DNA of 64,000 nt from a phage: the NCBI GenBank assembly GCA_024911895.1, contig GCA_024911895.1_3948.1. The stretch is one strand, 5' to 3'. Numbering within the stretch: the first letter of the stretch is position 1; each line of letters opens with the position of its first letter. Positions 5,845 to 41,172 of the stretch are shown one piece after another. The notes beneath the pieces are model-generated. The model searched no databases, was not told the origin of the DNA, and saw only the letters and a list, made by a program, of their open reading frames with translations. The translations under genes and the position numbers were made by a program.

Positions 5845-5932
5845 TTTAGAATCTCCAATTTAGGATTTAGTGGTAAAGCTCTTTATCTGGGGCTTACTTT
5901 ATCGAACTATAAGCCCCTTGTAAAGTACTTTA
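5845..5932 (-). repeat. family-B early cassette
   Basis: 2 mismatches from 2845..2932; abuts the ATG of ORF 5587..5844. Confidence 0.7.
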
Positions 5933-6313
5933 TCAGTTAATTTTGAAAATTGTCACATAACCATCACTACCGATTATTTGAGATACTCCAGCTTTTTCTA
6001 CATGATAGCCCATATTTTCAAGATGGTAAACAGCATCATCGTAACCATATGCGCCACCCTGATAACGTCTCTTATCGCATCTTATCAGGTTTTTACCACG
6101 TCCTGCAAGTGCATTCAGTACAGCTTTTTCACTTGATAGCGTACCATCTAACATGGTTGCCGTGTAATGGTTGATTTTATTCCCGTTAATATCATACTTA
6201 AAATTGAATGCGTGAACAACAATCAATTTGCCGTTAAATTTTTCATCAAGTGACTTCTCCAGTGCGTTGCGGAAGTTGTCTTTGTTGATGAATTTCGGTG
6301 CACGATAAGCCAT
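5933..6313 (-). CDS. hypothetical early protein (126 aa)
   Basis: ATG after family-A-type leader (TAAACTAGGAGATTCAAAA). Confidence 0.55.
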   Translation of the reverse strand: MAYRAPKFINKDNFRNALEKSLDEKFNGKLIVVHAFNFKYDINGNKINHYTATMLDGTLSSEKAVLNALAGRGKNLIRCDKRRYQGGAYGYDDAVYHLENMGYHVEKAGVSQIIGSDGYVTIFKIN

Positions 6314-6401
6314 TTTTGAATCTCCTAGTTTAAGGGTTAATTTAGTAAAGCTCTTTATCTGGGGCTTAAGATATCAACTTTTAAACCCCCTGTAAAGTAC
6401 T
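6314..6401 (-). repeat. family-B early cassette
   Basis: close copy of 5498..5586; abuts the ATG of ORF 5933..6313. Confidence 0.7.
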
Positions 6402-6623
6402 TTATTTGTCGTAGTAGTAAATCGCTGTCTGCCTTGTAAATTTCTTAGTGTTTCTTGTAAGGTAGCAATTAGAATTAATAGCCGTTTCTACATAGTTGCA
6501 ATAGTCGGCTTCTGATATTCTGGACCATACGCCACAGATTTGCATGTAAAAACGTTTTGCCTTTGTGTGAATGTTAGTTGTAACCATCAATTCGCGACTG
6601 TATATCATTATTTCGCGCTCCAT
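6402..6623 (-). CDS. hypothetical early protein (73 aa)
   Basis: ORF overlapping the end of 6608..6796 (translational coupling). Confidence 0.4.
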   Translation of the reverse strand: MEREIMIYSRELMVTTNIHTKAKRFYMQICGVWSRISEADYCNYVETAINSNCYLTRNTKKFTRQTAIYYYDK

Positions 6624-6796
6624 TTCTCAAAGAGTTCAGCAGGGAAACGTTCGCTATAACCTTTTAAGGAAAAAGTGTTATCTTCGTGGATAGCTTCCAC
6701 CTGATAAACCTTATAAGAGCGTATAGTTAGCATTTTGTAAGAGTATTCGTGCTTGATGTTAACCTCATCACCAACTTTAATCTTTCTTGATGCCAT
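6608..6796 (-). CDS. hypothetical early protein (62 aa), first gene downstream of the 6847..6875 promoter
   Basis: ATG after leader AAACTGGAGATTCAAAAA. Confidence 0.5.
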   Translation of the reverse strand: MASRKIKVGDEVNIKHEYSYKMLTIRSYKVYQVEAIHEDNTFSLKGYSERFPAELFEKWSAK

Positions 6797-6846
6797 TTTT
6801 TGAATCTCCAGTTTAGGAAGTGGGCTTGATTGCCCGTCTGATGCAA

Positions 6847-15578: not shown

Positions 15579-17360
15579 TTAAAGCTGCTTGTCAATATTA
15601 TTTCGAATATCACCAAGAGTTGTGTAACCGAACTGCTCAGAGTCGCTAAAGACTAAACGTAAAGCACAAGCTGGATGCTCAAGTGCATCTGCAAAACTCT
15701 GGAATCCATAGCCGTCTACAGCTTTCAGACTCTCACCATCCCACATAGGGGCTACACCACCAAAAGCAGACTTCTTAACACCACTATCTGTTTTAGGGTC
15801 TTTTGCAAGCATAATCTCTTTACCACCAATGCTTGCAAGAGTTGCTTTGACAGCAAATGCAAAGGTGTCACGAGTCATGTACTGGTAAGTGTAAGAACCC
15901 ACACCAAACACTACGTTAGAGCTTGCAAAACCCATTTCATACAAACGCTTCAGGATTTCGTTTGCACGTTCCAACGTGATAGAGTCACCATAAATAAGGC
16001 CAATGTGCTCATCCAGCACCTTAAAGCCTTTAGAGTTGATAGTTCCTCCAAAGATGTTATACAGTGTTTTGATAGCTCCATCAATCTCCGCTACAGGACG
16101 TGTTACAACGTTTGCAGAACCAACCATATAAGCATTTTTCAACAGCACTGTATCAGCAACTTCAAAGTCTTCTCTGTCAACAACCATTTCGTAGCCTTCT
16201 GACAGTAGCCATCCAGCAATACCATAACTGATATTTTCAAGCTTCATGTTCAGAACAGCATTCAACATCGTGTCGCTGGCTTCAAGCTTGCTTAAGTGTT
16301 CGTAATAAGCCTTTTTAGCACACTCTAAATGGATTGCTTTGTATCCTGCGACAATATGTACAGGGTCTCCAGAATCAGGACGAATTACCAGTTTACCATC
16401 ACGTCCCATAATCTCTTTGCGGAGTTCTGGTAATATGACTGATACAGTCCTCCAGAAATTATAAGTATCTGAGACAACACTTGCAATACCAGTTGGGTAA
16501 GTCTCTGTTAAAAAACGACGGAAGGTTTGTAACTCACCTTTAAAACGTCTTTCATCTTCAATCAACTCATTACCACCTTCCCAAGCAATGTTTGCACACA
16601 TTACAGAGTGTTCAGTGGCTGGTACAGAGCTACCAATATCAGAGATTGGGTAGGACTGTCCATAGATACGTTTAGCTGTATACACAGCAGGAAAACTGTC
16701 AGTTCCTTTAAAGCTTGTTAAGTGACCTACAGCGTTAAATGCATCATCAGTAAAGCCGGACATGCCGCGCATAGCAAAGTCATGGCACTGATAAGGTAAA
16801 TGCAAGTCGTTGTCACAAGTAAGGTCAGCCCACTTCTTACAAATGCGTTTGTAATGTAATGCAATAGTTGCAATGGTGCAAGCCTTCCAAATCTCAGCAG
16901 AGAAAGCATCTTCCAGATAACCTGCTACCCAATGGAAACCTGAAACAGTGTTCTGGAAGACAATCATTGGGACACGCATCGGGACAACTGTGCCTTCTTC
17001 TACAGCGTATACTTCAACTGGTAGGTAACCTAAGTCGTGAAGTGCTTCCCAATGCTCTCGACCGATAGCATCTTTACCCAGAACACCATTCATGACTTCT
17101 AAGATTTCGTCAATTGCTTCTTTTTTATCACGTTCAAAGAAAGTGGCGTTCCAGTGGTCTATCAGGTAATCTTTAACAAAACGTTGAATACCAAAAGCCA
17201 CTACACCATCAATTACTAAGGGGCTGTTAAACCACTTATCACTACGTGGTGTCAGGTTCAACATAAGATATTGCGTAGCATCTGGATACTGATATATATG
17301 TGATGCCTTGTAAGCATCTGCATTAAGACCTGCTGGTACTGCGTAAAGTGACTTACTCAT
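15579..17360 (-). CDS. nicotinamide phosphoribosyltransferase-family protein (Nampt-like; could instead be a nicotinamide-ADPR transferase-type enzyme)
   Basis: 593 aa; overall Nampt-like composition and length class; adjacent to a Prs-like gene; family call from memory of phage NadV-type proteins. Confidence 0.6.
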   Translation of the reverse strand: MSKSLYAVPAGLNADAYKASHIYQYPDATQYLMLNLTPRSDKWFNSPLVIDGVVAFGIQRFVKDYLIDHWNATFFERDKKEAIDEILEVMNGVLGKDAIGREHWEALHDLGYLPVEVYAVEEGTVVPMRVPMIVFQNTVSGFHWVAGYLEDAFSAEIWKACTIATIALHYKRICKKWADLTCDNDLHLPYQCHDFAMRGMSGFTDDAFNAVGHLTSFKGTDSFPAVYTAKRIYGQSYPISDIGSSVPATEHSVMCANIAWEGGNELIEDERRFKGELQTFRRFLTETYPTGIASVVSDTYNFWRTVSVILPELRKEIMGRDGKLVIRPDSGDPVHIVAGYKAIHLECAKKAYYEHLSKLEASDTMLNAVLNMKLENISYGIAGWLLSEGYEMVVDREDFEVADTVLLKNAYMVGSANVVTRPVAEIDGAIKTLYNIFGGTINSKGFKVLDEHIGLIYGDSITLERANEILKRLYEMGFASSNVVFGVGSYTYQYMTRDTFAFAVKATLASIGGKEIMLAKDPKTDSGVKKSAFGGVAPMWDGESLKAVDGYGFQSFADALEHPACALRLVFSDSEQFGYTTLGDIRNNIDKQL

Positions 17361-17376
17361 ATTTTATCTCTCTCTC

Positions 17377-17868
17377 TTAGTTATGTCTTGCAAACTCACC
17401 ATGAAGTTCTATTCGCTTTTTAATTACAGCTTCTTTTGCTTCTTCTACCGTTTTAAATCTTCCACAAAAGTATTCTTTATGGTAAAGCATGACTCTTGCT
17501 TTGTAAAGACCTGTTTGTTTACAAAAACTTACACCCTTCACACCAGTTTTATTATTCTTGTATATACCCCTATTCCTCTGATTTTGTGACTTTGTGCTAA
17601 GTCTTAAATTCTCCAACTTATTATTAGGTTTATCAAGGTCTATGTGGTCTATCTCATATCCACTTGGTATCTCACCTCCAGACATAATCCATGCAATATT
17701 ATGTGCATAGTACCTCTTCTTATTTATCTGGACTTGGATATAACCCTTCTTAGACCTTGTGCCAGCCACATTACCAGCAATAGCGGTACTGCAAAGGGTT
17801 ACTCTCCAAATTAATAAACCTGTATCTGGCTCATATATTAGGTATCTTTCAAAATAACCCTTATTCAT
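17377..17868 (-). CDS. HNH homing endonuclease with C-terminal AP2 DNA-binding domain
   Basis: HNH region GYEIDHIDLDKPNNKLENLRL; AP2-like GVKGVSF...GRFKTVEEAKEAV...HGEFA; inserted between the Nampt-like and Prs-like genes. Confidence 0.7.
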   Translation of the reverse strand: MNKGYFERYLIYEPDTGLLIWRVTLCSTAIAGNVAGTRSKKGYIQVQINKKRYYAHNIAWIMSGGEIPSGYEIDHIDLDKPNNKLENLRLSTKSQNQRNRGIYKNNKTGVKGVSFCKQTGLYKARVMLYHKEYFCGRFKTVEEAKEAVIKKRIELHGEFARHN

Positions 17869-17876
17869 ACTGTTAC

Positions 17877-18758
17877 CTAATCAATGTTTGCTACAGTAAC
17901 TTGACCATAATGTGTTAAGCCACGGTCTTTAGCTTCCCCTAAAGAGTTTGTAGTGTAAATGTGGTCAATACCATTGTCAAGAAGGTTTTCAACACCTTTA
18001 GAGAAAATACCATGTGTTACATAGAGTTCCACACGTTTTGCACCTGCTTCACGAAGATGTTTAGCTGCCTCTACGAATGTTCGACCACCATCACAGATAT
18101 CATCAAGAATCATGACAGTTTTATCTGTCAAATCAACATCATCAAGGATTCGCATACCAGTTATTTCACCAGTCTTAAGGTTGCGTACTTTAGACATTGT
18201 GATATATGGTTTATCCACCTCTTTAGCAGTCTCTGCAATCTTCTTAGCAGCACCTGCATCTGGGGCTACTAAGTAGTCAACCAGAGGGTCATTTGCATAG
18301 TGGACTGCAATCTCCTTTTGAGGAATACTCTGGAAGCAATTGAAAAGGTTATCTGGAACGTAACTGTGAGGGTCAACTGCACAGACTGCACCAAATCCCA
18401 TTGCATTTACCTGTTTAGAAAAAACCTTCAAAGCTGCTGCGTCGCCTTTAAACATGTGACGGTCATATCGTGCATTTGGTAAGTAGTAAAAGATGACAGT
18501 CTTTAAAGCATAATCATGAGGAATTAAATCATCAATTGCTTCTTTAGCAAGCGCCACAGCAAACAATGTGTCTTTATCATAACCTTTTACAATCATAATC
18601 ACATTGTTGATGGATGATGCAGCATAAGCAGTAAAATCAACAAACTCTGGTGAAAAGTGTCCACCAATCTCACCAGAAGGGAATTGGATGATGTTAAACT
18701 CTTCTTCATGAGTTCCTTTAGTTGGTGAATGAACTGTAACACGTATAGATGTTTTCAT
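17877..18758 (-). CDS. ribose-phosphate pyrophosphokinase-family protein (Prs-like; could instead be an ADPR-pyrophosphate synthetase-type enzyme); start moved to the ATG at 18758
   Basis: PRPP-binding loop VMILDDICDGGRT, VDPH, APDAGA; GA-rich RBS GAGAGAGAAA; the ORF-track start at 18773 is TTG. Confidence 0.6.
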   Translation of the reverse strand: MKTSIRVTVHSPTKGTHEEEFNIIQFPSGEIGGHFSPEFVDFTAYAASSINNVIMIVKGYDKDTLFAVALAKEAIDDLIPHDYALKTVIFYYLPNARYDRHMFKGDAAALKVFSKQVNAMGFGAVCAVDPHSYVPDNLFNCFQSIPQKEIAVHYANDPLVDYLVAPDAGAAKKIAETAKEVDKPYITMSKVRNLKTGEITGMRILDDVDLTDKTVMILDDICDGGRTFVEAAKHLREAGAKRVELYVTHGIFSKGVENLLDNGIDHIYTTNSLGEAKDRGLTHYGQVTVANID

Positions 18759-18769
18759 AATTTTCTCTC

Positions 18770-19048
18770 TCAATCAAAAGTTACGTTAGTTACTGCCATT
18801 GCAGACTTGCATTTTACAGGGTCTACAACGTGATAAAGTACACTACAGTTTCCTGTGCTATCTGGCACAGGCTTTACCCATTGCTGCTTGACAGTTGGTT
18901 CTCCTAAGTCTTTGTAAGAACCATCTGTAAAGTTGTTTACCATCTCAAGTGCAATTGGCTCTGGAACATGACCACGTATCATGTACATTTCACAACCATT
19001 ACCACCTTCACTGACTAATGGTAAAATCTCCCACTTTTCTTTAGCCAT
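18770..19048 (-). CDS. hypothetical protein (92 aa)
   Basis: ORF with ATG start. Confidence 0.45.
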   Translation of the reverse strand: MAKEKWEILPLVSEGGNGCEMYMIRGHVPEPIALEMVNNFTDGSYKDLGEPTVKQQWVKPVPDSTGNCSVLYHVVDPVKCKSAMAVTNVTFD

Positions 19049-19556
19049 TGTAAGTTGCCCTATAAACTATCTCGAACTTCAACAGGAGAGATATTGCCAA
19101 ATCTGTATAGTCGTTGTCAAGCACATCTGGCATATTATTTTTGATATATCTCTCTTGCTCTTCATAGGTCATCTTAGGGGTACTTAAAAGACTATCTCCT
19201 TGCTTCTGGTTATCAGCTTTAGTCTGAATAAACCAGTTTGCACAGTGATGTTCACCACCTTTTGTAACAGGTTTGTGATGACCTAATGTGAAGGATTGAC
19301 TGCCTGTGTATCTGCAAAGTTTATTGAGTACTGTAATGGTGTTCTTCACAACAAAACATTCATACAGATTATCTATGGTGTAGTGTGGGTAATATCGAAA
19401 TAATGCTCTTTCACGAGTACTCTCACGATTCCAGAGAATCATGTGATTGGAGTTGGAAGGGTCGTATTGGTGGGAGTCAATGAACTCTTGACGTTCCTCA
19501 AAGCTGAGTCTTAAAACTGACATTGCAGCCGAACGTTTCAGGTTTGACAGATACAT
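19041..19556 (-). CDS. hypothetical protein with HNH-like motif (possible HNH endonuclease)
   Basis: LGHHKPVTKGGEHHCANW resembles the HH..GG..N core of HNH nucleases. Confidence 0.35.
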   Translation of the reverse strand: MYLSNLKRSAAMSVLRLSFEERQEFIDSHQYDPSNSNHMILWNRESTRERALFRYYPHYTIDNLYECFVVKNTITVLNKLCRYTGSQSFTLGHHKPVTKGGEHHCANWFIQTKADNQKQGDSLLSTPKMTYEEQERYIKNNMPDVLDNDYTDLAISLLLKFEIVYRATYNG

Positions 19557-19607: not shown

Positions 19608-19928
19608 TTACTGAGCTACTTTCAAGATTCTTGTGAATGGAATTTCACTTTCTTCCATTAACTCTTTAGTTTCTTTGGTAACTTTCACAAAGTTATCTAG
19701 GCAGATAATCTTCTTATCTTTCTTACTATAGGTTAATTTAACCTTTTCAATATCTTTCTCAGAGCTTTTCTCTTCATTGAAGAGTTTTACAGCCTCTTTG
19801 AATGGGAGATATGAGCCATCATTATCACTAATGAATCCTGTACCACAATAGTAGGAGTTATGCTCTCTAGCCATAAACTGGCACAGTAAGAAAATCTGTA
19901 ATTTACGAGTGTTATAAACTTTGCTCAT
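19608..19928 (-). CDS. hypothetical protein (106 aa)
   Basis: ORF. Confidence 0.45.
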   Translation of the reverse strand: MSKVYNTRKLQIFLLCQFMAREHNSYYCGTGFISDNDGSYLPFKEAVKLFNEEKSSEKDIEKVKLTYSKKDKKIICLDNFVKVTKETKELMEESEIPFTRILKVAQ

Positions 19929-22103: not shown

Positions 22104-24248
22104 TTACATAGAAACTCTGTCACGAATCTCAGCGATTTTTGCATCATTCATTCGTGATTCACCTTTAATCTTAGTCCATCCAAGATAACCACACACCCTG
22201 TTAATCACAGAGATATCATGTGAATGGCAAACCTCACATTCTTCAACATCAGCCTTTGGTCTGTTACCACAATGCTCACAGATTGCTAAGTCAAAGTTAA
22301 GTCCCTGATAAAAACCTTTCAACATGCCTCTTGTAATACAGCTTTTAAGTGCTGATAAGTTTTCTGGGTTAGCCACCCTTACATACTGGATTCTGCCACC
22401 TCTACAGATATGGAAGAATGGCTCTTCTAAGTCCTGCTTCTCAAATGGTGAGATGTCTGCTGCAACATTCATATGAAAACTGTTTGTGAAGTATTCCTTG
22501 TCAGAAACACCTTTAATAACGCCAAACATATCTCTGAACTGTTTTAGTTGAGTTCCACAAAGTGATTCTGCTGGAGTACCATAGACGGCATATAAGAAGC
22601 CATCTTCGTTTTTAAACTCTTCAGTTTTCATGTTGATGTATGCCAGAACATCGTATGCAAAACTATAGCTTCCAACTTCATGAAGTCGTTTACCCTCAGC
22701 AAGAACAGATAACTCATCAAGCGCAGTAACCCCAAAAGAAGCTGTGAAAGACTTCACGATATCCCAACCAACCTTGTCAGTAGGTTTCTTAGTCCCTTTG
22801 TACAGACCACCTTGTGTGAATGCAAGAGGGTTAGAACTTGCTGGCATATTAGCAATCATTTCGTAGCGTTTCTTGTGGAAGTTGCGAATCATCTCTAGGT
22901 GCTTATCAAGCTCTTTCCAGAAATCTAAACCATTCTCTTTAGAATACTGGTAAATCATTGGTAAGTTCAAAGATACAGCACCAATGTTAGCACGACCAAC
23001 GTAGAACTCTTCTCCACCCTCATTAAGATATGGAGATAAAAAGGCTCTGCAACCCATCGGTGAAATTACCTTACCAGAACGCTCAAAAGCCTCTGCTACA
23101 GCGCCATGACCAGACACACTTAAGAAATCTGGGTACATTGCTTTAGAGCAACACTCGATGGCTTTACTGTACAGGTGACCTTGACAGATATTTTCATCAT
23201 GTCTCTTCTGGTCATAAATATAAACCAGTTTAGGGAATACAACAGGTTTTTTGCTCTTGCCTTGTCCATTCATACGAACATCTAGGAGAGTACTTGCAAT
23301 CATGTATTGGAGTCGATTATCCTCATTAGACATATCTGAGTCAAGTAAACCAAATGTTAAAGTTGTGAATGCAAAATCACCACGGCTACAAGGTACGGTA
23401 TTTAGTTTCATCTCAAGTGACTGAAAACCCTGAGTCAGTTCAATTTGTAACTGCTCCATTACATAATTGTGGTAATGCTCTTTAGGAATACCATAAGATG
23501 ATGCTTTCTCAGCATGATAGCGTAGAGACTTCTTAGCATACGGTACAAGTACCTTATCAATCTCTGCTAAAGTAAAACCACCAAATTGCTGTGCAGTTGC
23601 TGAAAGTACTACGTCACCAATAACCTGCAACGCTGACAGTACAGATTTAGGTTCACAGTACTCAATGCCGGACATTTCAAAGCCACCTTTTAGTACTTTA
23701 CCAATGTCAAACAGGCAACAGTTAATACCACCAAAAATCAGGTCTCTCAAATCGTGGATATAGATAAAGCCTTTCTCAATGGCTTCAAGTTCCTCTGGTG
23801 TTAGATGATACTGTTTAAAGATTTCTTTAGTCAGATAACCACGGATAATTGAACCTTTCGTAGAAATTAAACTACTGTCAAAGTTAGCATTTTCACGGTC
23901 ACCTAAGAAGAGTGTATCTTTAGTCTTCTGGTAGAGTTCATCCCAATTTTGAGCAACCTCTTTACGGTAATTTCTGTATGTTGAGTAAGACTCATAAATC
24001 TCGTGATTGACCTCTGCCAAAGCACCTTCAACAATACTGTGAATATCATTTACCGAAATTAGTAAATTATTCTGTTTAGTAGATTTTACCAGAATCCTCA
24101 TAAATGCTGACTCAAGAGCTTGAGTAACATCTGGTGGGAGTTCTTTATACCCAACCCTATTAGCTGACTTTGTGACTGCTGCTAAAACTTTTTTGATATC
24201 AGGTTCTTCGAGTGAGCCATTCTTTTTAATAATCTGTACTTTGTTCAT
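22104..24248 (-). CDS. nrdD: anaerobic (class III) ribonucleoside-triphosphate reductase
   Basis: 714 aa; C-terminal glycyl-radical motif RVCGYLG; Cys cluster CEHCGN..CEVCH. Confidence 0.8.
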   Translation of the reverse strand: MNKVQIIKKNGSLEEPDIKKVLAAVTKSANRVGYKELPPDVTQALESAFMRILVKSTKQNNLLISVNDIHSIVEGALAEVNHEIYESYSTYRNYRKEVAQNWDELYQKTKDTLFLGDRENANFDSSLISTKGSIIRGYLTKEIFKQYHLTPEELEAIEKGFIYIHDLRDLIFGGINCCLFDIGKVLKGGFEMSGIEYCEPKSVLSALQVIGDVVLSATAQQFGGFTLAEIDKVLVPYAKKSLRYHAEKASSYGIPKEHYHNYVMEQLQIELTQGFQSLEMKLNTVPCSRGDFAFTTLTFGLLDSDMSNEDNRLQYMIASTLLDVRMNGQGKSKKPVVFPKLVYIYDQKRHDENICQGHLYSKAIECCSKAMYPDFLSVSGHGAVAEAFERSGKVISPMGCRAFLSPYLNEGGEEFYVGRANIGAVSLNLPMIYQYSKENGLDFWKELDKHLEMIRNFHKKRYEMIANMPASSNPLAFTQGGLYKGTKKPTDKVGWDIVKSFTASFGVTALDELSVLAEGKRLHEVGSYSFAYDVLAYINMKTEEFKNEDGFLYAVYGTPAESLCGTQLKQFRDMFGVIKGVSDKEYFTNSFHMNVAADISPFEKQDLEEPFFHICRGGRIQYVRVANPENLSALKSCITRGMLKGFYQGLNFDLAICEHCGNRPKADVEECEVCHSHDISVINRVCGYLGWTKIKGESRMNDAKIAEIRDRVSM

Positions 24249-30040: not shown

Positions 30041-30541
30041 TCAAGTACAATTTGCTTTCATTACCTTATGGATTCTTTTTTCAGCATCTTCATAAGTTTC
30101 TTTAGTAATAAACTTAATTGCTGCAATATTGGCATTGTAGAAGAGTCTGAGCTTCGAGTCAATCCTTTTTGTCATTACATCGAACTTATGTTGAAGGTTT
30201 GCTTCACCATAAACTAGGCCACCTTTTGTGTAGTAGGTTTGAATAATGTAAAAGTCAAAAAATTCTTTTCCAAAGCTCTCAATATCTTTTTTAATATACT
30301 CAGAAGAAGTCTCATAAGTCATCCAATCACTTTCCTTAGTGACTACCTTCTTCCGAGTCTTCCCAGCAACTTTTCTTTTAGTCACACTATTAAGCTGTTT
30401 CTTACCCAAATAGTACTGTCCAGTCTTTTTGCAGTACACTAGGTAGACAAAGCCAAAGTGCTTTGCTGGGTCAACTTCACCACATAGTGAAACCCAATGT
30501 CCATATTCAGGGCAATTGCCAAAACCTTTTATTTTTCTCAT
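30041..30541 (-). CDS. GIY-YIG-like domain protein, possible homing endonuclease
   Basis: GFVYLVYCKKTGQYYLGKK resembles GIY..(10)..YIG. Confidence 0.3.
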   Translation of the reverse strand: MRKIKGFGNCPEYGHWVSLCGEVDPAKHFGFVYLVYCKKTGQYYLGKKQLNSVTKRKVAGKTRKKVVTKESDWMTYETSSEYIKKDIESFGKEFFDFYIIQTYYTKGGLVYGEANLQHKFDVMTKRIDSKLRLFYNANIAAIKFITKETYEDAEKRIHKVMKANCT

Positions 30542-31065
30542 TCATCACCTTTATTAGCAAACTCTTTGTGTAAACGTTGACGTTCCCTATTTACAACCTC
30601 TGCTGCTTCATCAATAGTGTCATAGTTGCCGAAGAAGTAGACCCTCTTCTTAAAAGTTATCTGTGTAGACCACTTACCATACTGTTTTTTGTAGTACACA
30701 CCTTTAACACCTGATTTATTGTTCTTATTGAGCAACCTATTACATTGGTTCTCTGATAACGTACATGCCCTAAGATTTACCCAGCGATTGTCTAGTGTTA
30801 CATGATTTTTATGGTCAACACACTCAGGTAGGTATCCATCCATATACAGAACGGCTAGGGTATGTGCATAATAGCCCTTACCAAACAAATAAATTCTGGT
30901 GTACCCTCTTAAGTTTGTACCTGCAACAGAGCCAATTTTTGTGTGTCTAGCAGATTTCTTAATCCAAGTAAAGACCCCTGTTTCGGGGTCATAATGTAGG
31001 TACTCTTTAAGAGTTTGTTGAGTTAACATTTGGTGTCCACCCATACTTATCAAAAGTAAAATCAT
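30538..31065 (-). CDS. HNH homing endonuclease with AP2 domain (true start probably internal, near 31029-31044)
   Basis: VDHKNHVTLDNRWVNLRACTLSEN; AP2-like GVKGVYY...GNYDTIDEAAEVV...HKEFA; overlaps the 3' end of the exonuclease gene. Confidence 0.65.
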   Translation of the reverse strand: MILLLISMGGHQMLTQQTLKEYLHYDPETGVFTWIKKSARHTKIGSVAGTNLRGYTRIYLFGKGYYAHTLAVLYMDGYLPECVDHKNHVTLDNRWVNLRACTLSENQCNRLLNKNNKSGVKGVYYKKQYGKWSTQITFKKRVYFFGNYDTIDEAAEVVNRERQRLHKEFANKGDE

Positions 31066-32053
31066 CTTTCTTATTTCTTTCCTGATAAGCTAAGAAGAAG
31101 TGTTGCTGCATTAGTTCTAAAGGTGTTCTGGTAACTGTTTGACCATCCCACGAGACATAAGTGTAGGACTCTTTCTTAGCATAAAGTTCATAGATAGCAT
31201 CAAGACACTCTTTGTAAGTTGTTTTCCCTTCAAGAGCCTTCATCACAGTAGCTTTACCAACACCCTTTAAACCAAAATAATTATCCGCATTGTCGCCAGC
31301 CACAGCTTGATAGCAAAGAAATTTAAAACCTACCCCAACTGTCTTCTTAGCTTTTGGTGTCGATTTTATTGGACAATCCCAAATTTCACCAACGTTGTTA
31401 TCAGCAATGAAGATTAAAGGTGATTTTTCATAGGTCATATCAATGCAGTAAGTGCCTTCAGCTTGGCGAAGGTCTTTATCAATGCTCATTAAGGCAGCCT
31501 TTTTACCCATCTTTTCAGCTTTAGCAATAACGATAGAGTCAGCTTCAAATCCATCAAGAATCAATTTGAACTCTGGTCTTGACAGAAGGTATTCACGACA
31601 AGCGACTAAGTGTGTTGGTGTGACAGCATCTTTACGGTTACCTTGATATTGGTGCTCAAGACCTTTAACGTCTTTATGTTTATGCACACCTTTCTCTGTT
31701 AAATAACCTACCCAAGTTCTCTCTTTACCAACAATCTTAAGCCATTCCTGAAGCACCTGTTGAGTAGCCATGATAGCTTCTTTTTCACTCTTAGCTTCTT
31801 TCCAAGTCTGTCTTTCCCATTCATCTTCATCAAATGTCAGGCCAAGTTCTTCCACAAGGATTCTCTGGTCTGCTAACCATCTTGCAGCATCTTTCGCATT
31901 ATCAAATGGCTCAGACTCTTCTGCTGTGAGTTTATTGACGTATTTATATTTTGCTTTCTCAACTACACAAGCACCTTTATAGGCAATACTATCAGAGTCA
32001 ATAAAGACATGTGTAACTGAATCGGGAAGCTTTGTTAATGTGTACTTCTCCAT
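31007..32053 (-). CDS. 5'-3' exonuclease / flap endonuclease (T7 gp6 / T4 RNase H family)
   Basis: N-terminal VFIDSDSIAYKGA; helix-3-turn-helix motif AGDNADNYFGLKGVGKATVMKAL. Confidence 0.65.
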   Translation of the reverse strand: MEKYTLTKLPDSVTHVFIDSDSIAYKGACVVEKAKYKYVNKLTAEESEPFDNAKDAARWLADQRILVEELGLTFDEDEWERQTWKEAKSEKEAIMATQQVLQEWLKIVGKERTWVGYLTEKGVHKHKDVKGLEHQYQGNRKDAVTPTHLVACREYLLSRPEFKLILDGFEADSIVIAKAEKMGKKAALMSIDKDLRQAEGTYCIDMTYEKSPLIFIADNNVGEIWDCPIKSTPKAKKTVGVGFKFLCYQAVAGDNADNYFGLKGVGKATVMKALEGKTTYKECLDAIYELYAKKESYTYVSWDGQTVTRTPLELMQQHFFLAYQERNKKDDFTFDKYGWTPNVNSTNS

Positions 32054-37679: not shown

Positions 37680-37936
37680 GTAAGCCTCTTTTAAGTAACT
37701 ATTAAGTTTTAATCTTTTATCTTAACGTATTCTATACGTTATACTTTAAAGCTTTTTAAAAGCTATTAAATAATCTTTTAAGAGTTTTAAAGTATCTGTA
37801 TAGTTAAACTGTTAAGTAACCTTTTAAGTAAAAACCCACTTCGCAAAGATTAACACCTTGTCAAGTACATTGTCAACTTGCTTTTTATAATTTTTTGCAG
37901 TAATGTATGAGGTTAATGATTTTAGAGGGAGTAAAA
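37680..37936. promoter_or_regulatory. AT-rich divergent intergenic region between the leftward and rightward gene blocks, carrying copies of motifs from the 1-1000 region (TCTGTATAG, CTGTTAAG, CTTTTAAG)
   Basis: read directly; GAGGGAG RBS before the polymerase ATG at 37937. Confidence 0.5.
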
Positions 37937-40636
37937 ATGGAAAACGTAGATTTTAAAAACTTACATTTAGTTGGTGATACAGAAACTGATGGTTTACTCC
38001 TTGAGTTCACTAAAGTTCACGTAATGGCTTTCGCAGATTATAAATCTGACGATGAAGAGCCACCTGTATGGGTCTTTACAGATGAGCCTATCCTCGGTCA
38101 CAAGTACACTAAGTACATTAAGGGTGGTTTACGTGAAGGTGTTGAGTTTGCGTTAAAGGCAAAACGACTTTGTATCCATAACGGCCTCGGTTATGACTGG
38201 TGGGTCTTCAATCACATTGCACCGGATTTATGGAACTTTGATAATCCAAAATGTAAGCCGTGGAGTAATTTCTTTCAGGATTCTCTTATCCAGTCTCGTG
38301 TTCAGTGGATGGATAGACCAACTCCAAAGGGTTATAAAGGTGCTCATGGTTTGGCTGCATGGGGTGCTCGTGTTGGTGTTCGTAAACCAGAGATTGAACA
38401 TTGGGGTGTGTGGAATGCAGAAATCTTCACTCGTGTTGTAGAAGATATCCGTATTAACGCCAAAACTAAACGGGCACTTGATAATGAATATCTCAAGCTT
38501 AAGAAGTGTGGTATAGACACTTATGAAACTTACATGCGAGCTAAAGAAACATCTTTCTGGATGAGTCAACAGGCTATCAATGGCTGGAAAGCTGATAAAG
38601 AGCTTATGGAGTTCCATGTAAAGGAACTTGACAAGTTGACTAATGAGCTTGCTTCAGAGGTTGAACCACATCTACCTCCAACTATTAAGACCAAAGGTAA
38701 AGTTACTGGAGAAGAATTTGCAAGAGCTTGGAATGAGTATGTTGAAACATTTGGTCATGCAGATGGACTGAAGAGAATCACCAAGTATCCTAAGACAAAG
38801 TATCGTCAGCAGGTACGTAACGGTGAGATGCAGACATATGAAATCAAGCCATTTGGTAAGCCAACTACAAAGATTTTTAACATTGAAAAGAGAAATTGCT
38901 ATACACCAACCAACTCTGTAACTGGTGAAGAGTACAAGGAAGGTTTTGTAGCAATGAAGGATGCTCGTGCAATTTGCAATGAGTTGAATGCAAAGATTGG
39001 TAAGAAATGCAAAGACTGGAAGCCAGTAAAAACAGTTAAAACTGTGAAGTACTATAACAGTCATGTTGTTAACCACTTTGAGCTTGAGTCAAGTCGCTAC
39101 ACAGGTTTGATTGATGCACCATATACACCAATTGAGTTCGAAGTTTCTCGTATGACTCAGGTAGCAGTTGTTAAAGACTACTTGAAATCAGTTGGTTGGA
39201 TTCCAGATGACTGGAACTACAAGAAAGACTCAGATGGTCGTCCTGTTAAGGTTTGTCGTTTCAAAGACAACAAAAAGATGATTACCAAGCATCCTAAATG
39301 GCAGGAGATGGTTGAACGGTGTGGTTTGAGTTATGTTGAACATGAAGGTGTCCAGTACATTGAGCATAACTGGTCTGTGAAGAAGTACACAGATTTGCTT
39401 GAGCCTTGCTTAATCCGTACTTCACCAAAACTTACTGAATCATCTTATGATACGATTGAAGGTGAGCTTGGACAGAAGATTGCTAAGTACTATACTTTGA
39501 TGCACCGACGCAGAACTATTGAGAACTCAAAGGATGATGAAAAAGGTTGGTTGAACCAGATTCGTCCTGATGGTCGACTTAGTGCTGGTGCAATGGTGTT
39601 TGGTACTTCAACTGGACGTATGACACAATATGGTATTGTAAACGTACCGTCTGGTGCTGCTGTCTATGGAGCACCTATGAGGGAGGTATGGACTTGTGAA
39701 GATGGTACAGATATCATCTCCGTAGACCAAAACTCAGCACAGCTAGTTCTCCTTTGTAACTTTATGGGTGATGAAGACTTCACTAAAGCGGTAACTGAGG
39801 GTAAAGAGTCAGTAGAGTTCACTAAGCAAGAGGATGGCAGATACTACTGTAAGCATCTTGATAAGTATCTTAACCCAGAAACTGACAAGTATCTTCGTTA
39901 TGATGCTGAGAATGACCTCTATGAAGTCTATACAGGGACTGATGCACATACATTGAACAGTATTTACTTTGGTCTTAACAAAGAAGAGGATATTATTCTT
40001 TGTAGGGAGACACAGGATGAGGAACTTCTTCACGAGATTACAAAAGGTCGTAAGAAGAGCAAAAATGGCATCTACGCCCTGTTATTTGGAGCCGGAGATG
40101 AGAAGTTTGCGAAAACTATCAAGGCATCATCTACGGAAGAGGGTGCGTTGACTAAACAAACTTACTTTGTGCGTCTACCTAAGATTAAAAAACTGCTTGA
40201 TAGATTAGAGGAAGACTTCAAAGCAACTAAGAAAGCACTTGAAGAGGTTTTCGGAAAAACTTCTGCAATTGCCAAAGGTGGCTATATCAAAGTTGCTGGA
40301 GCGTGGTTATGGTGTAAATCTCCACATAAGTTATTGAATTACACACTTATGGGCAGTGAGGCGCAGGTGCAGAATGAGGGTATTAACTTGGCTAACAGAG
40401 AGTTAACAGAGCGCAAGCTTACAGTTCTAAATGGTAGGAAGCCTGCTATTGGTGCTAGGTGGGTCTGTAGTTACCACGATGAGGTCTCTTTAGAGGTTCC
40501 AACCAAAGATGTACCTGATGTTAAGGAGATTATTGATAGAATGTATGGTCAAGCATCAAAAAATCTTGGATTAAAGAGTAAGACGCTTGTTACAGGCACT
40601 GGTAAGGTAGGTAAGACATGGTACGCCGTACACTAA
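37937..40636 (+). CDS. DNA polymerase, family A (with 3'-5' exonuclease domain)
   Basis: exo motif LVGDTETDGL; motif A-like ISVDQNSAQLVLL; motif B RKKSKNGIYALLFGAG; motif C VCSYHDEVSLE. Confidence 0.8.
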   Translation: MENVDFKNLHLVGDTETDGLLLEFTKVHVMAFADYKSDDEEPPVWVFTDEPILGHKYTKYIKGGLREGVEFALKAKRLCIHNGLGYDWWVFNHIAPDLWNFDNPKCKPWSNFFQDSLIQSRVQWMDRPTPKGYKGAHGLAAWGARVGVRKPEIEHWGVWNAEIFTRVVEDIRINAKTKRALDNEYLKLKKCGIDTYETYMRAKETSFWMSQQAINGWKADKELMEFHVKELDKLTNELASEVEPHLPPTIKTKGKVTGEEFARAWNEYVETFGHADGLKRITKYPKTKYRQQVRNGEMQTYEIKPFGKPTTKIFNIEKRNCYTPTNSVTGEEYKEGFVAMKDARAICNELNAKIGKKCKDWKPVKTVKTVKYYNSHVVNHFELESSRYTGLIDAPYTPIEFEVSRMTQVAVVKDYLKSVGWIPDDWNYKKDSDGRPVKVCRFKDNKKMITKHPKWQEMVERCGLSYVEHEGVQYIEHNWSVKKYTDLLEPCLIRTSPKLTESSYDTIEGELGQKIAKYYTLMHRRRTIENSKDDEKGWLNQIRPDGRLSAGAMVFGTSTGRMTQYGIVNVPSGAAVYGAPMREVWTCEDGTDIISVDQNSAQLVLLCNFMGDEDFTKAVTEGKESVEFTKQEDGRYYCKHLDKYLNPETDKYLRYDAENDLYEVYTGTDAHTLNSIYFGLNKEEDIILCRETQDEELLHEITKGRKKSKNGIYALLFGAGDEKFAKTIKASSTEEGALTKQTYFVRLPKIKKLLDRLEEDFKATKKALEEVFGKTSAIAKGGYIKVAGAWLWCKSPHKLLNYTLMGSEAQVQNEGINLANRELTERKLTVLNGRKPAIGARWVCSYHDEVSLEVPTKDVPDVKEIIDRMYGQASKNLGLKSKTLVTGTGKVGKTWYAVH

Positions 40637-41121
40637 CACTTCAAGATTACAAGGATAATTTTATTTATGACCCCGACAAAGGGGTCTTCTACAACAAGTA
40701 TGACAGGAATAGACAAGCTAAAGCTGGACAGATTGCAGGAGGAAGTGATACTTATGGTTACAAAGTACTTAAATTCAAAGGTGTCGTAATAAAAGTTCAT
40801 CACCTCGTTTGGTGGTTCGAACATGGTTACAAACCCACTAAGATGATAGACCACATTGATGGTAACAGAAGTAATAATCATATCTCTAATCTTAGGGAGG
40901 CTGATAAGTATGGAAACGCCCAAAACAGGGTTAAGCAGACAGCTAACAAGTCAGGTTACAAGGGTGTGCATTATTTTAAAGACTGCAATAAATGGAGGGC
41001 TGCTATAACATGCAGAGGTAAAAGGACATCACTTGGTTTATTTGACACACCAGAAGAAGCCCATAAAGCTTACTGTGAAGCTGCTGTAAAACTCCACGGA
41101 GAGTTTGCAAAACTAAGTTGA
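40618..41121 (+). CDS. HNH homing endonuclease with AP2 domain
   Basis: IDHIDGNRSNNHISNLREA; AP2-like GYKGVHY...GLFDTPEEAHKAY...HGEFA; overlaps the polymerase 3' end. Confidence 0.7.
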   Translation: MVRRTLTLQDYKDNFIYDPDKGVFYNKYDRNRQAKAGQIAGGSDTYGYKVLKFKGVVIKVHHLVWWFEHGYKPTKMIDHIDGNRSNNHISNLREADKYGNAQNRVKQTANKSGYKGVHYFKDCNKWRAAITCRGKRTSLGLFDTPEEAHKAYCEAAVKLHGEFAKLS

Positions 41122-41172
41122 CAATGTGCTCAGGGAAGAGTACCTTATACTGTATCTTGTATAGGAGGTTAT

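Follow-up and report, generated by a model that had tools for sequence, protein, structure and literature searches.

Three predicted free-standing HNH-AP2 homing endonuclease genes at polymorphic junctions of a Felix O1-like phage genome segment

The DNA analysed here is a 64,000-nt stretch of phage sequence (hereafter, the window) with a G+C content of 38.6%. A 5-kb query around the site of the first endonuclease gene matched 260 phage records, nearly all from Felix O1-like myoviruses and at 90–96% identity, with Escherichia, Salmonella, Shigella and Citrobacter as the hosts of the matched Felix O1-like records; by this measure of sequence similarity, the window is a segment of the genome of a Felixounavirus (a Felix O1-like myovirus). 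Three open reading frames, denoted here HNH1, HNH2 and HNH3, were originally predicted to encode HNH endonucleases with AP2 DNA-binding domains. All three are present, at 17377..17868 (minus strand), 30538..31065 (minus strand) and 40618..41121 (plus strand), and the proposed identity of the neighboring genes, NAMPT and Prs for HNH1, the exonuclease for HNH2 and the polymerase for HNH3, was borne out by the Pfam and PHROG searches. At each of the three sites, the endonuclease gene abuts or overlaps the genes next to it. The genes considered below are the following:

15579..17360, minus strand: nadV (nicotinamide phosphoribosyltransferase), downstream of HNH1; Pfam NAPRTase and NAMPT_N, phrog_448 (1e-200)
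17377..17868, minus strand: HNH1, predicted HNH-AP2 homing endonuclease gene, 163 aa; HNH_3 and AP2 domains, phrog_99, structural model
17877..18761, minus strand: prs (ribose-phosphate pyrophosphokinase), upstream of HNH1; phrog_619 (1.7e-96)
19041..19556, minus strand: conserved 171-aa ORF with the HNH-reminiscent motif GHHKPVTKGGEHHCANW..DNQKQG; phrog_3500 (unknown function; 8e-91)
30041..30541, minus strand: SegE-like GIY-YIG domain gene, 166 aa; Pfam SegE_GIY-YIG PF19835 (E 8.9e-27)
30538..31044, minus strand: HNH2, predicted HNH-AP2 homing endonuclease gene; HNH_3 (1.3e-11) and AP2 (4.6e-4), with the ORF extending to 31065
31007..32053, minus strand: exo (5'-3' exonuclease), the tail of which is provided by the HNH2 insert; phrog_107 (4.4e-66)
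40618..41121, plus strand: HNH3, predicted HNH-AP2 homing endonuclease gene, 167 aa; HNH_3 (1.7e-12) and AP2 (8.7e-10)

The three proteins are paralogous to one another (E 1e-20 to 1e-31), and the search for a further HNH-AP2 paralogue within the window found none beyond them. All three belong to phrog_99, 'HNH endonuclease' (E about 1e-64 to 1e-69; 3.6e-67 for HNH1), and score above the Pfam HNH_3 cut-off of 24.8 bits (HNH1, 66.2 bits, E 2e-18; HNH2, 44.4 bits, E 1.3e-11; HNH3, 47.2 bits, E 1.7e-12). For the Pfam AP2 domain, with a cut-off of 33.3 bits, HNH3 is over the threshold (39.2 bits, E 8.7e-10), and HNH1 and HNH2, at 20.9 bits each (E 4.6e-4), are sub-threshold on their own; most of the HNH-AP2 homologues carry the combination of PF00847 and PF13392. 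A PDB search with the single sequence of HNH1 produced no match, the similarity to I-HmuI and to AP2 proteins being seen only with a family profile. This profile, made from 64 sequences, matched the nuclease domain of I-HmuI (1U3E, E 1.8e-9) over residues 32–105 and the AP2 domain of the plant AP2/ERF protein WRI1 (E 9.4e-11) over residues 108–160, with further AP2 matches to TEM1, ERF096 and AtERF1 (E range 9e-11 to 4e-3). Six residues (D74, H75, N87, R89, N96 and N99) are invariant in the alignment of the 64 homologues, which includes all three window proteins, and align with the DH..N..N motif of 1U3E. The AlphaFold model of HNH1 (pLDDT 94.6) has I-HmuI (1U3E) as its top match in a Foldseek comparison with the PDB (E 8e-5, probability 1.00) and superposes on the AP2 domains of TEM1 and AtERF1 with an rmsd of 1.2–1.4 Å. 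Judging from these profile and model comparisons, and in agreement with the domain assignment made originally, the N-terminal half of each protein forms a beta-beta-alpha-metal nuclease of the I-HmuI type in which the catalytic Asp-His and Asn are intact, and an AP2 DNA-binding domain, with its three-stranded sheet plus a helix, makes up the C-terminal half. All three ORFs in the window are full length, and HNH1, HNH2 and HNH3 are predicted to be active nucleases. The ending HGEFA, initially ascribed to all three proteins, holds for HNH1 and HNH3 but not for HNH2, which reads LHKEFANKGDE.

The site of HNH1 (site 1) involves two features in addition to the genes themselves:

17361..17876, minus strand: the whole site-1 insert, 516 nt, from the prs stop to the nadV ATG; alignment with Felix O1 (filled) and with REP9 and wV8 (empty), junctions in 29 loci
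17265..17360, minus strand: the first ~96 nt of nadV, a haplotype block tied to the presence of HNH1; allele linkage

Site 1 is filled in 62 of the 234 related GenBank phage records and the gene is absent in about 170, with the empty-site records producing a two-piece match to the query that is about 470 nt shorter; when searched alone, the HNH1 ORF was found in the same 62 records, as a single copy in each. Among 28 viral contigs, the site is filled in 6 and empty in 22. The empty alleles contain a conserved 45-nt spacer, AACTTTATAGGGGCTTAAAAGCCCCATTTTGAGAGAGATTAAAAG, that is swapped out for the 516-nt insert in the filled alleles. The parts of the spacer are AACTTTATA, a GGGGC-loop-GCCCC stem-loop, ATTTT, and the ribosome-binding region GAGAGAGATTAAAAG; the filled alleles have 8 nt, followed by the 163-codon ORF and then by a GAGAGAGA-type ribosome-binding site for nadV. 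The hairpin of the empty site was considered as a candidate intrinsic terminator and rejected, given that the scanner makes no call and the T-run is too short. The separation of prs from nadV by an endonuclease gene, highlighted as notable in the original prediction, is less remarkable than it seemed: Felix O1 and about a quarter of the relatives carry the insert, and the ribosome-binding site of nadV is kept. Every filled allele ends prs with TAG, and the empty ones end it with TGA or TAA; in the annotation of phage Mijalis, the ribosome-binding site of the HNH gene is an AGG that overlaps the TAGG at the prs stop.

The presence of HNH1 is linked to the sequence at the beginning of nadV. Position 5 of nadV (Ser2 vs Thr2) is G in 15 of the 15 filled alleles and C in 27 of the 27 empty ones; position 18 is C in all 15 filled alleles and T in 25 of the 27 empty ones. 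Position 18 failed as a perfect HNH1 marker in a second sample, where two of the six empty alleles have the filled-type base. The linkage is strong over nt 34–96 and disappears past ~nt 96, and there are no HNH1-linked positions in the body of prs among the alleles compared. The 5' block of nadV can be considered a putative co-conversion tract and/or target region. The HNH1 genes of VpaE1, Si3 and GEC_vB_B1 match that of the window with 99.6% identity, against 93.8–94.1% for the surrounding 5 kb, and those of phiSUSP1, Moogle and Mijalis with ~90% identity, against ~80% in the flanks; this excess of gene over flank identity was computed for HNH1. Moogle and Mijalis belong to Mooglevirus, and phiSUSP1, which is annotated within Ounavirinae but outside Felixounavirus, we take to be a Suspvirus. 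Over its first 50 nt, nadV reaches 98% identity in the filled genomes of these other genera, compared to 88% in the empty loci L024 and L030 of a neighboring non-Felixounavirus lineage. Taken together, the conservation of HNH1 and the short nadV tract present, at the level of sequence, the footprint expected of horizontal spread with short co-conversion. The HNH1 gene of Felix O1 has 89.6% nucleotide identity to that of the window, and the closest relative of the window overall, IMGVR_UViG_3300045988_004167, carries a different HNH1 sub-lineage (88.6% nucleotide identity) and, at site 2, another HNH lineage.

At site 2, where HNH2 adjoins the 3' end of exo, one additional feature is relevant:

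31037..31103, minus strand: exo 3' tract, ~66 nt, tied to the presence of any HNH gene at site 2; association test

The ATG of HNH2 at 31065 is not kept in relatives, in which the conserved starts are 31044, yielding a protein of 168 aa (annotated so in pinkbiff), or 31029, yielding one of 163 aa, the length of HNH1; one of these two is probably the true start, in which case the overlap with exo would be 23–38 nt rather than 59. When the site is empty, exo encodes 346 aa and ends with WEPCMNED*, and the ATG of the GIY-YIG gene overlaps the last 11 nt of exo; when it is filled, exo encodes 348 aa and ends with WTPNVNSTNS*, the new tail being encoded, in another frame, by the 5' end of the HNH gene, so that the overlap between exo and HNH2 belongs to the insert. 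The stop codon of HNH2, in turn, overlaps the ATG of the GIY-YIG gene (ATGA). Of 28 loci, 16 have no insert at site 2, 4 have the window-type HNH2, and the remaining 8 have a gene from either of two further HNH lineages. The ~66-nt exo tract is associated with the presence of an HNH gene (12 filled vs 16 empty alleles, p down to 3e-8), and the same test detected no linked positions either farther upstream in exo or on the GIY-YIG side. The three HNH lineages at this site are 76–96% identical at the nucleotide level over the first ~20 codons (93–96% between the window type and the type represented by locus L033) and 33–70% identical beyond that, and the last ~20 codons are 100% identical between two of the three.

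Two features characterize site 3, at the 3' end of the polymerase gene (pol):

39700..40636, plus strand: divergent 3' module of pol, adjoining HNH3; identity profile along pol against 17 loci
41047..41172, plus strand: last ~75 nt of HNH3 together with a 51-nt spacer; codon-aligned identity profiles and junction sequences

The first six codons of HNH3 lie inside the last six codons of pol, leaving the length of pol unchanged, with a pol tail of KTWYAVH* in the carriers vs KSWLEVH* in the empty alleles. The overlap of HNH2 with the 3' end of exo and that of HNH3 with the 3' end of pol, both noticed in the window alone, are real and are conserved in relatives. The window-type HNH3 was found only in loci L060–62, pinkbiff and nataliec; the other relatives either are empty at this site or contain one of three other HNH lineages (<65% amino acid identity). 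In the sample of 29 Felixounavirus-level loci, the window-type gene is present in 3, a gene of another HNH lineage in 13, and no insert in 12. The four site-3 lineages are 80–100% identical at the nucleotide level, synonymous positions included, over the last ~75 nt of the ORF and the spacer, and 30–60% identical over the remainder; the HNH-derived 75 nt are missing from the empty alleles. The sharing of this short segment by four otherwise divergent lineages indicates recombination within the endonuclease ORFs. The motif in the spacer occurs once in the window; the spacer was also evaluated as a sigma-70 promoter and rejected, with no scanner call and a hexamer spacing of 22 nt. Along pol, most relatives are ~96% identical to the window up to position ~39,700 (~40,150 in one group), then 74–78%, and finally 56–66% over the last ~330 nt (17 loci), and this abrupt drop beside HNH3 places the endonuclease gene at the border of a pol module that has been exchanged. 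In relatives, an insert with an HNH ORF is located inside pol, at about window position 40120.

The comparison with relatives reveals empty alleles at all three sites, with the adjacent genes intact; the absence of such alleles, named in the original prediction as an outcome that would refute it, is therefore not what is observed. The linked flanking tracts are ~100 nt of nadV for HNH1, ~66 nt of exo for any HNH gene at site 2, and the pol 3' module for HNH3; the original suggestion that the positions of the endonuclease genes mark recombination hot spots fits these boundaries, namely, those of the nadV block and the exo tract and the fall of pol identity from ~96% to 56–78%.

Two other ORFs had been proposed as possible additional endonuclease genes. 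For the one at 30041..30541, the GIY-YIG domain is confirmed (PF19835, 94.2 bits with a cut-off of 25, residues 22–139) but the mobility is not, the gene being in the same position in 28 of the 28 loci, from several genera; the 'NAD synthetase' label that is attached to this gene is probably an annotation error. The ORF at 19041..19556 has a weak match to the HNH family phrog_2214 (E 1.4e-4) and a visible invariant HH..GG..N..N motif; it has no match in Pfam, the hhalign comparison with the HNH-AP2 family gives a probability of 0.2%, and the ORF is present in 31 of the 31 related loci. The PDB search with this ORF gave no informative match (the apparent matches to protein A, which were discarded, are sums of weak repeat matches that are individually non-significant), and the single-sequence AlphaFold model, with a pLDDT of 41, is unusable. 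The identification of this ORF as a homing endonuclease is not supported. Both genes are fixed in all relatives examined and so show no mobile behavior at this timescale. ORF 19608..19928, labeled 'putative HNH' in some relatives, was rejected as a candidate, matching DUF7390 alone, and the 976-nt window-specific segment at 5857–6832, which is absent in pinkbiff, contains small hypothetical ORFs and no endonuclease.

The existence in the window of three free-standing HNH-AP2 homing endonuclease genes, occupying junctions at which relatives have the same gene, a different one or none, is well supported by these sequence comparisons, and classical intron-less homing is, in our assessment, the highly probable explanation. 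Under this scenario, a carrier phage and a relative without the gene would co-infect one cell, and the enzyme would bind at or near the empty junction and nick or cut the DNA there (I-HmuI-type enzymes are nickases). The carrier genome would then serve as the recombination template for the repair of the break, whereby the endonuclease gene would be copied along with a stretch of the adjacent carrier sequence. The carrier allele itself would be immune, as the insert would remove or alter the target site: at site 1, through the loss of the 45-nt hairpin spacer and the linked changes in the prs stop and in codon 2 of nadV, and at sites 2 and 3, through the recoding of the last codons of exo and pol. 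More speculatively, the AP2 domain of HNH1 might recognize the GC-rich stem (GGGGC/GCCCC) of the replaced spacer. The nuclease activity, the exact target, the immunity of the carrier allele and homing in the present day are what we infer. A transposon-like origin of the inserts was rejected because no direct or inverted repeats were found to flank them.

The linkage tests use related genomes, so that shared ancestry could mimic co-conversion; furthermore, in many relatives sites 2 and 3 already contain other HNH lineages, so that simple invasion of empty sites does not cover all events. We tentatively suggest, as a possibility that falls somewhat short of an even chance, that sites 2 and 3 are arenas where HNH-AP2 lineages swap via recombination inside the ORFs, in effect, a cassette exchange between site-specific 'arms', each exchange also bringing along a piece of exo or pol, with the 3' third of pol in the window being an imported module.

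The explanations that compete with homing are less well supported. It seems unlikely that the endonucleases mainly serve the phage, as weapons against co-infecting relatives or as AP2-type regulators of the neighboring genes, with mobility being secondary. The inserts do directly adjoin nadV, exo and pol, AP2 domains are transcription factors elsewhere, the conserved stem-loop ahead of nadV gives way to the insert at site 1, so that effects on expression are possible, and the linked divergent pol module could be co-selected cargo. However, HNH1 is absent from about three quarters of the relatives and HNH2 or HNH3 from many, so that none of the three is required for growth; the nuclease motif is kept, which would be needless in a pure regulator; and, in terms of mechanism, homing and the cutting of a competitor's genome do not differ, making this account more a shift of emphasis than a separate mechanism.

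Less probable still, in our view, is that the genes are relics, that is, past homing arrivals that are now inactive or decaying and are vertically inherited or deleted. Decay is indeed seen in such genes, the HNH gene at site 2 being truncated in locus L035 and the fixed GIY-YIG gene being split in locus L057, but the ORFs in the window are full length with invariant catalytic residues, and HNH1, with its 99.6% identity across genomes with ~94% identical flanks and its presence in three genera, where it exceeds the identity of the flanks, speaks for recent spread and against slow decay. The notion that the three genes belong to introns or inteins, or that they encode HNH packaging factors associated with a terminase, which could be entertained on the grounds that the closest solved structure, I-HmuI, is intron-encoded and that relatives have the HNH-containing insert within pol, can be effectively dismissed: the Rfam scan of the window detected no intron and no other RNA family, the ORFs are intergenic and overlap their neighbors in a different frame, the empty alleles have intact adjacent genes and no exon junction, in the annotation of pinkbiff none of the three sites has a terminase gene nearby, the presence-absence polymorphism speaks against an essential packaging role, and inteins were excluded in the Felix O1 genome paper (PMC3185647).

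With homing as the favored explanation, the three sites mark DNA exchange, and accordingly, the prs-nadV region, the 3' end of exo and the 3' third of pol should be treated as mosaic, a precaution that concerns phylogenies, taxonomy and engineered therapeutic Felix O1-like phages. The defined empty and filled junctions are ready substrates for a very common, uncharacterized family of HNH-AP2 nucleases. The current understanding of homing endonucleases is unchanged by these findings. The presence of HNH genes and the endonuclease polymorphism in Felix O1-like phages are already known: Felix O1 has been reported to encode six HNH homing endonuclease homologues, inteins being excluded (PMC3185647), and Moreno Switt et al. 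identified endonuclease indels between or within conserved genes as the major difference among Felix O1-like phages (PMC3728262). Modest new details, of a kind already familiar, are the anatomy of the individual junctions, the flanking tracts linked to the inserts, and the mosaicism among the HNH lineages that compete for the exo and pol sites.

Among the annotated phage genes, ORF128 of Felix O1 (NP_945017, 'HNH endonuclease') is the same gene as HNH1, at the same prs/nadV locus; pinkbiff has all three genes (pinkbiff_84, _109 and _120), annotated as homing endonucleases, at the same three junctions; and VpaE1, Si3 and others contain equivalent annotated HNH1 genes that differ by sequence-level variation only, with up to 99.6% nucleotide identity. 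I-HmuI, the nicking endonuclease of SPO1 (1U3E), is homologous in the N-terminal nuclease domain and has the DH...N...N motif in common with the window proteins, but it is intron-encoded, whereas the window proteins are free-standing and have an AP2 domain; in the I-HmuI structure, DNA is reportedly bound by C-terminal helices plus a helix-turn-helix.

The T4 seg and mob genes, including SegG, SegF, SegE and MobE, are free-standing as well, with SegH and Hef replacing mobC and mobE. They are intergenic, located between conserved genes for replication and nucleotide metabolism, and display presence-absence variation among relatives, co-conversion of flanking markers and the occupation of one locus by different endonuclease genes from phage to phage. 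The Seg proteins of T4 are GIY-YIG enzymes with other DNA-binding modules, and their cleavage and marker exclusion are experimental results, whereas the window genes are known from sequence; like seg and mob, the HNH genes of the window vary both in presence and in the lineage that occupies one locus. SegE and SegG are also cited in PMC10448857. In the latter work (Barth et al. 2023, citing Magnani et al. 2004), the HNH and AP2 combination is a recognized homing endonuclease family, and nuclease genes at the boundaries of genetic exchange, along with domain shuffling between them, are described in other phages (PMC10448857). The 'IPA-HNH' genes of the Vibrio phage ICP1 have the same architecture, with an N-terminal HNH and a C-terminal AP2 domain, and differ in being too divergent for Pfam HNH_3, which the window genes match strongly (PMC10448857). 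As in the window, HNH-AP2 genes in phages adjoin essential genes and the boundaries of exchange (PMC10448857).

The closest overall relative of the window, IMGVR_UViG_3300045988_004167 (loci L004, L033 and L060), shares 98–99% amino acid identity with it in prs, exo and the C-terminus of pol, and the two genomes have in common HNH3, the HNH-AP2 homing endonuclease gene at the 3′ end of pol. Despite this similarity, HNH1 of the relative, which occupies the prs-nadV junction, belongs to another sub-lineage (88.6% nucleotide identity, Felix O1-type, with the C-terminal motif HGKFA), and site 2, the junction that follows exo, is filled by an HNH lineage other than that of the window. Therefore, the turnover of the endonuclease genes exceeds that of the rest of the genome.

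Comparison of the loci shows that, in several relatives (L086–L091), pol itself is split at KNGIYA|LLFGAGDEK, equivalent to position ~40120 of the window, where pol (37907-40636) represents the uninterrupted allele. The insert comes in two forms, one of ~760 nt that contains a 160-aa ORF of the Endo VII-type HNH variety (DHDH..G..RG.LC..CN) and one of ~220 nt without an ORF; the element is likely to be a group I intron, found either together with its endonuclease or lacking it. At ~40,150, beside the insertion site, lies one of the recombination breakpoints in pol. The anaerobic ribonucleotide reductase gene nrdD is interrupted in pinkbiff, a related phage with all three HNH genes at the same junctions, by a 741-nt insert with an ORF annotated as 'homing endonuclease' (window equivalent, ~23051). 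In the window, nrdD (22104-24248) is unbroken and encodes a 714-aa protein with the NRDD, ATP-cone and Gly_radical domains, and thus represents the empty allele for the pinkbiff element.

A separate difference from pinkbiff, where it is missing, is a ~976-nt segment of the early-gene region, with no resemblance to endonucleases among its ORFs:
within 5857-6832, minus strand: three short hypothetical ORFs of 126, 73 and 62 aa

In the 45-nt prs-nadV spacer of the empty alleles (L001, L002 and 21 others), a GC-rich stem-loop (GGGGC-loop-GCCCC, then ATTTT) is conserved, with variation in the loop bases; it was not called under the criteria of the terminator scan. This stem-loop is missing whenever the endonuclease gene is present (window 17361-17876). 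The 51-nt spacer 3′ of HNH3 (41122-41172; consensus TTGACAAGGTGCTCA(G/T)GGAAGAGTACCTTATACTGTATCTTGTATAGGAGG) is conserved in both filled and empty alleles and occurs once in the window. The HNH3 stop codon TGA overlaps TTGACA of this spacer, which does not match the sigma-70 spacing and may be a phage-specific regulatory element.

The N-terminal LRLSFEERQEFIDSHQYDPSNS of ORF 19041-19556 (residues 12-57) is similar to a motif that is repeated in the domains of staphylococcal protein A. The profile E-value of 6e-7 comes from summed repeats, with no individual match significant, and the resemblance is probably due to chance.

PHROG 447 and many GenBank records give ORF 30041-30541 the label 'NAD synthetase'. 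Since the sole Pfam match is SegE_GIY-YIG (E 8.9e-27), this label appears to be an annotation error that has been passed on between records. The SegE-like GIY-YIG gene is fixed throughout the subfamily, and its 166-aa product leaves scant space for a DNA-binding domain; the gene may have been domesticated.
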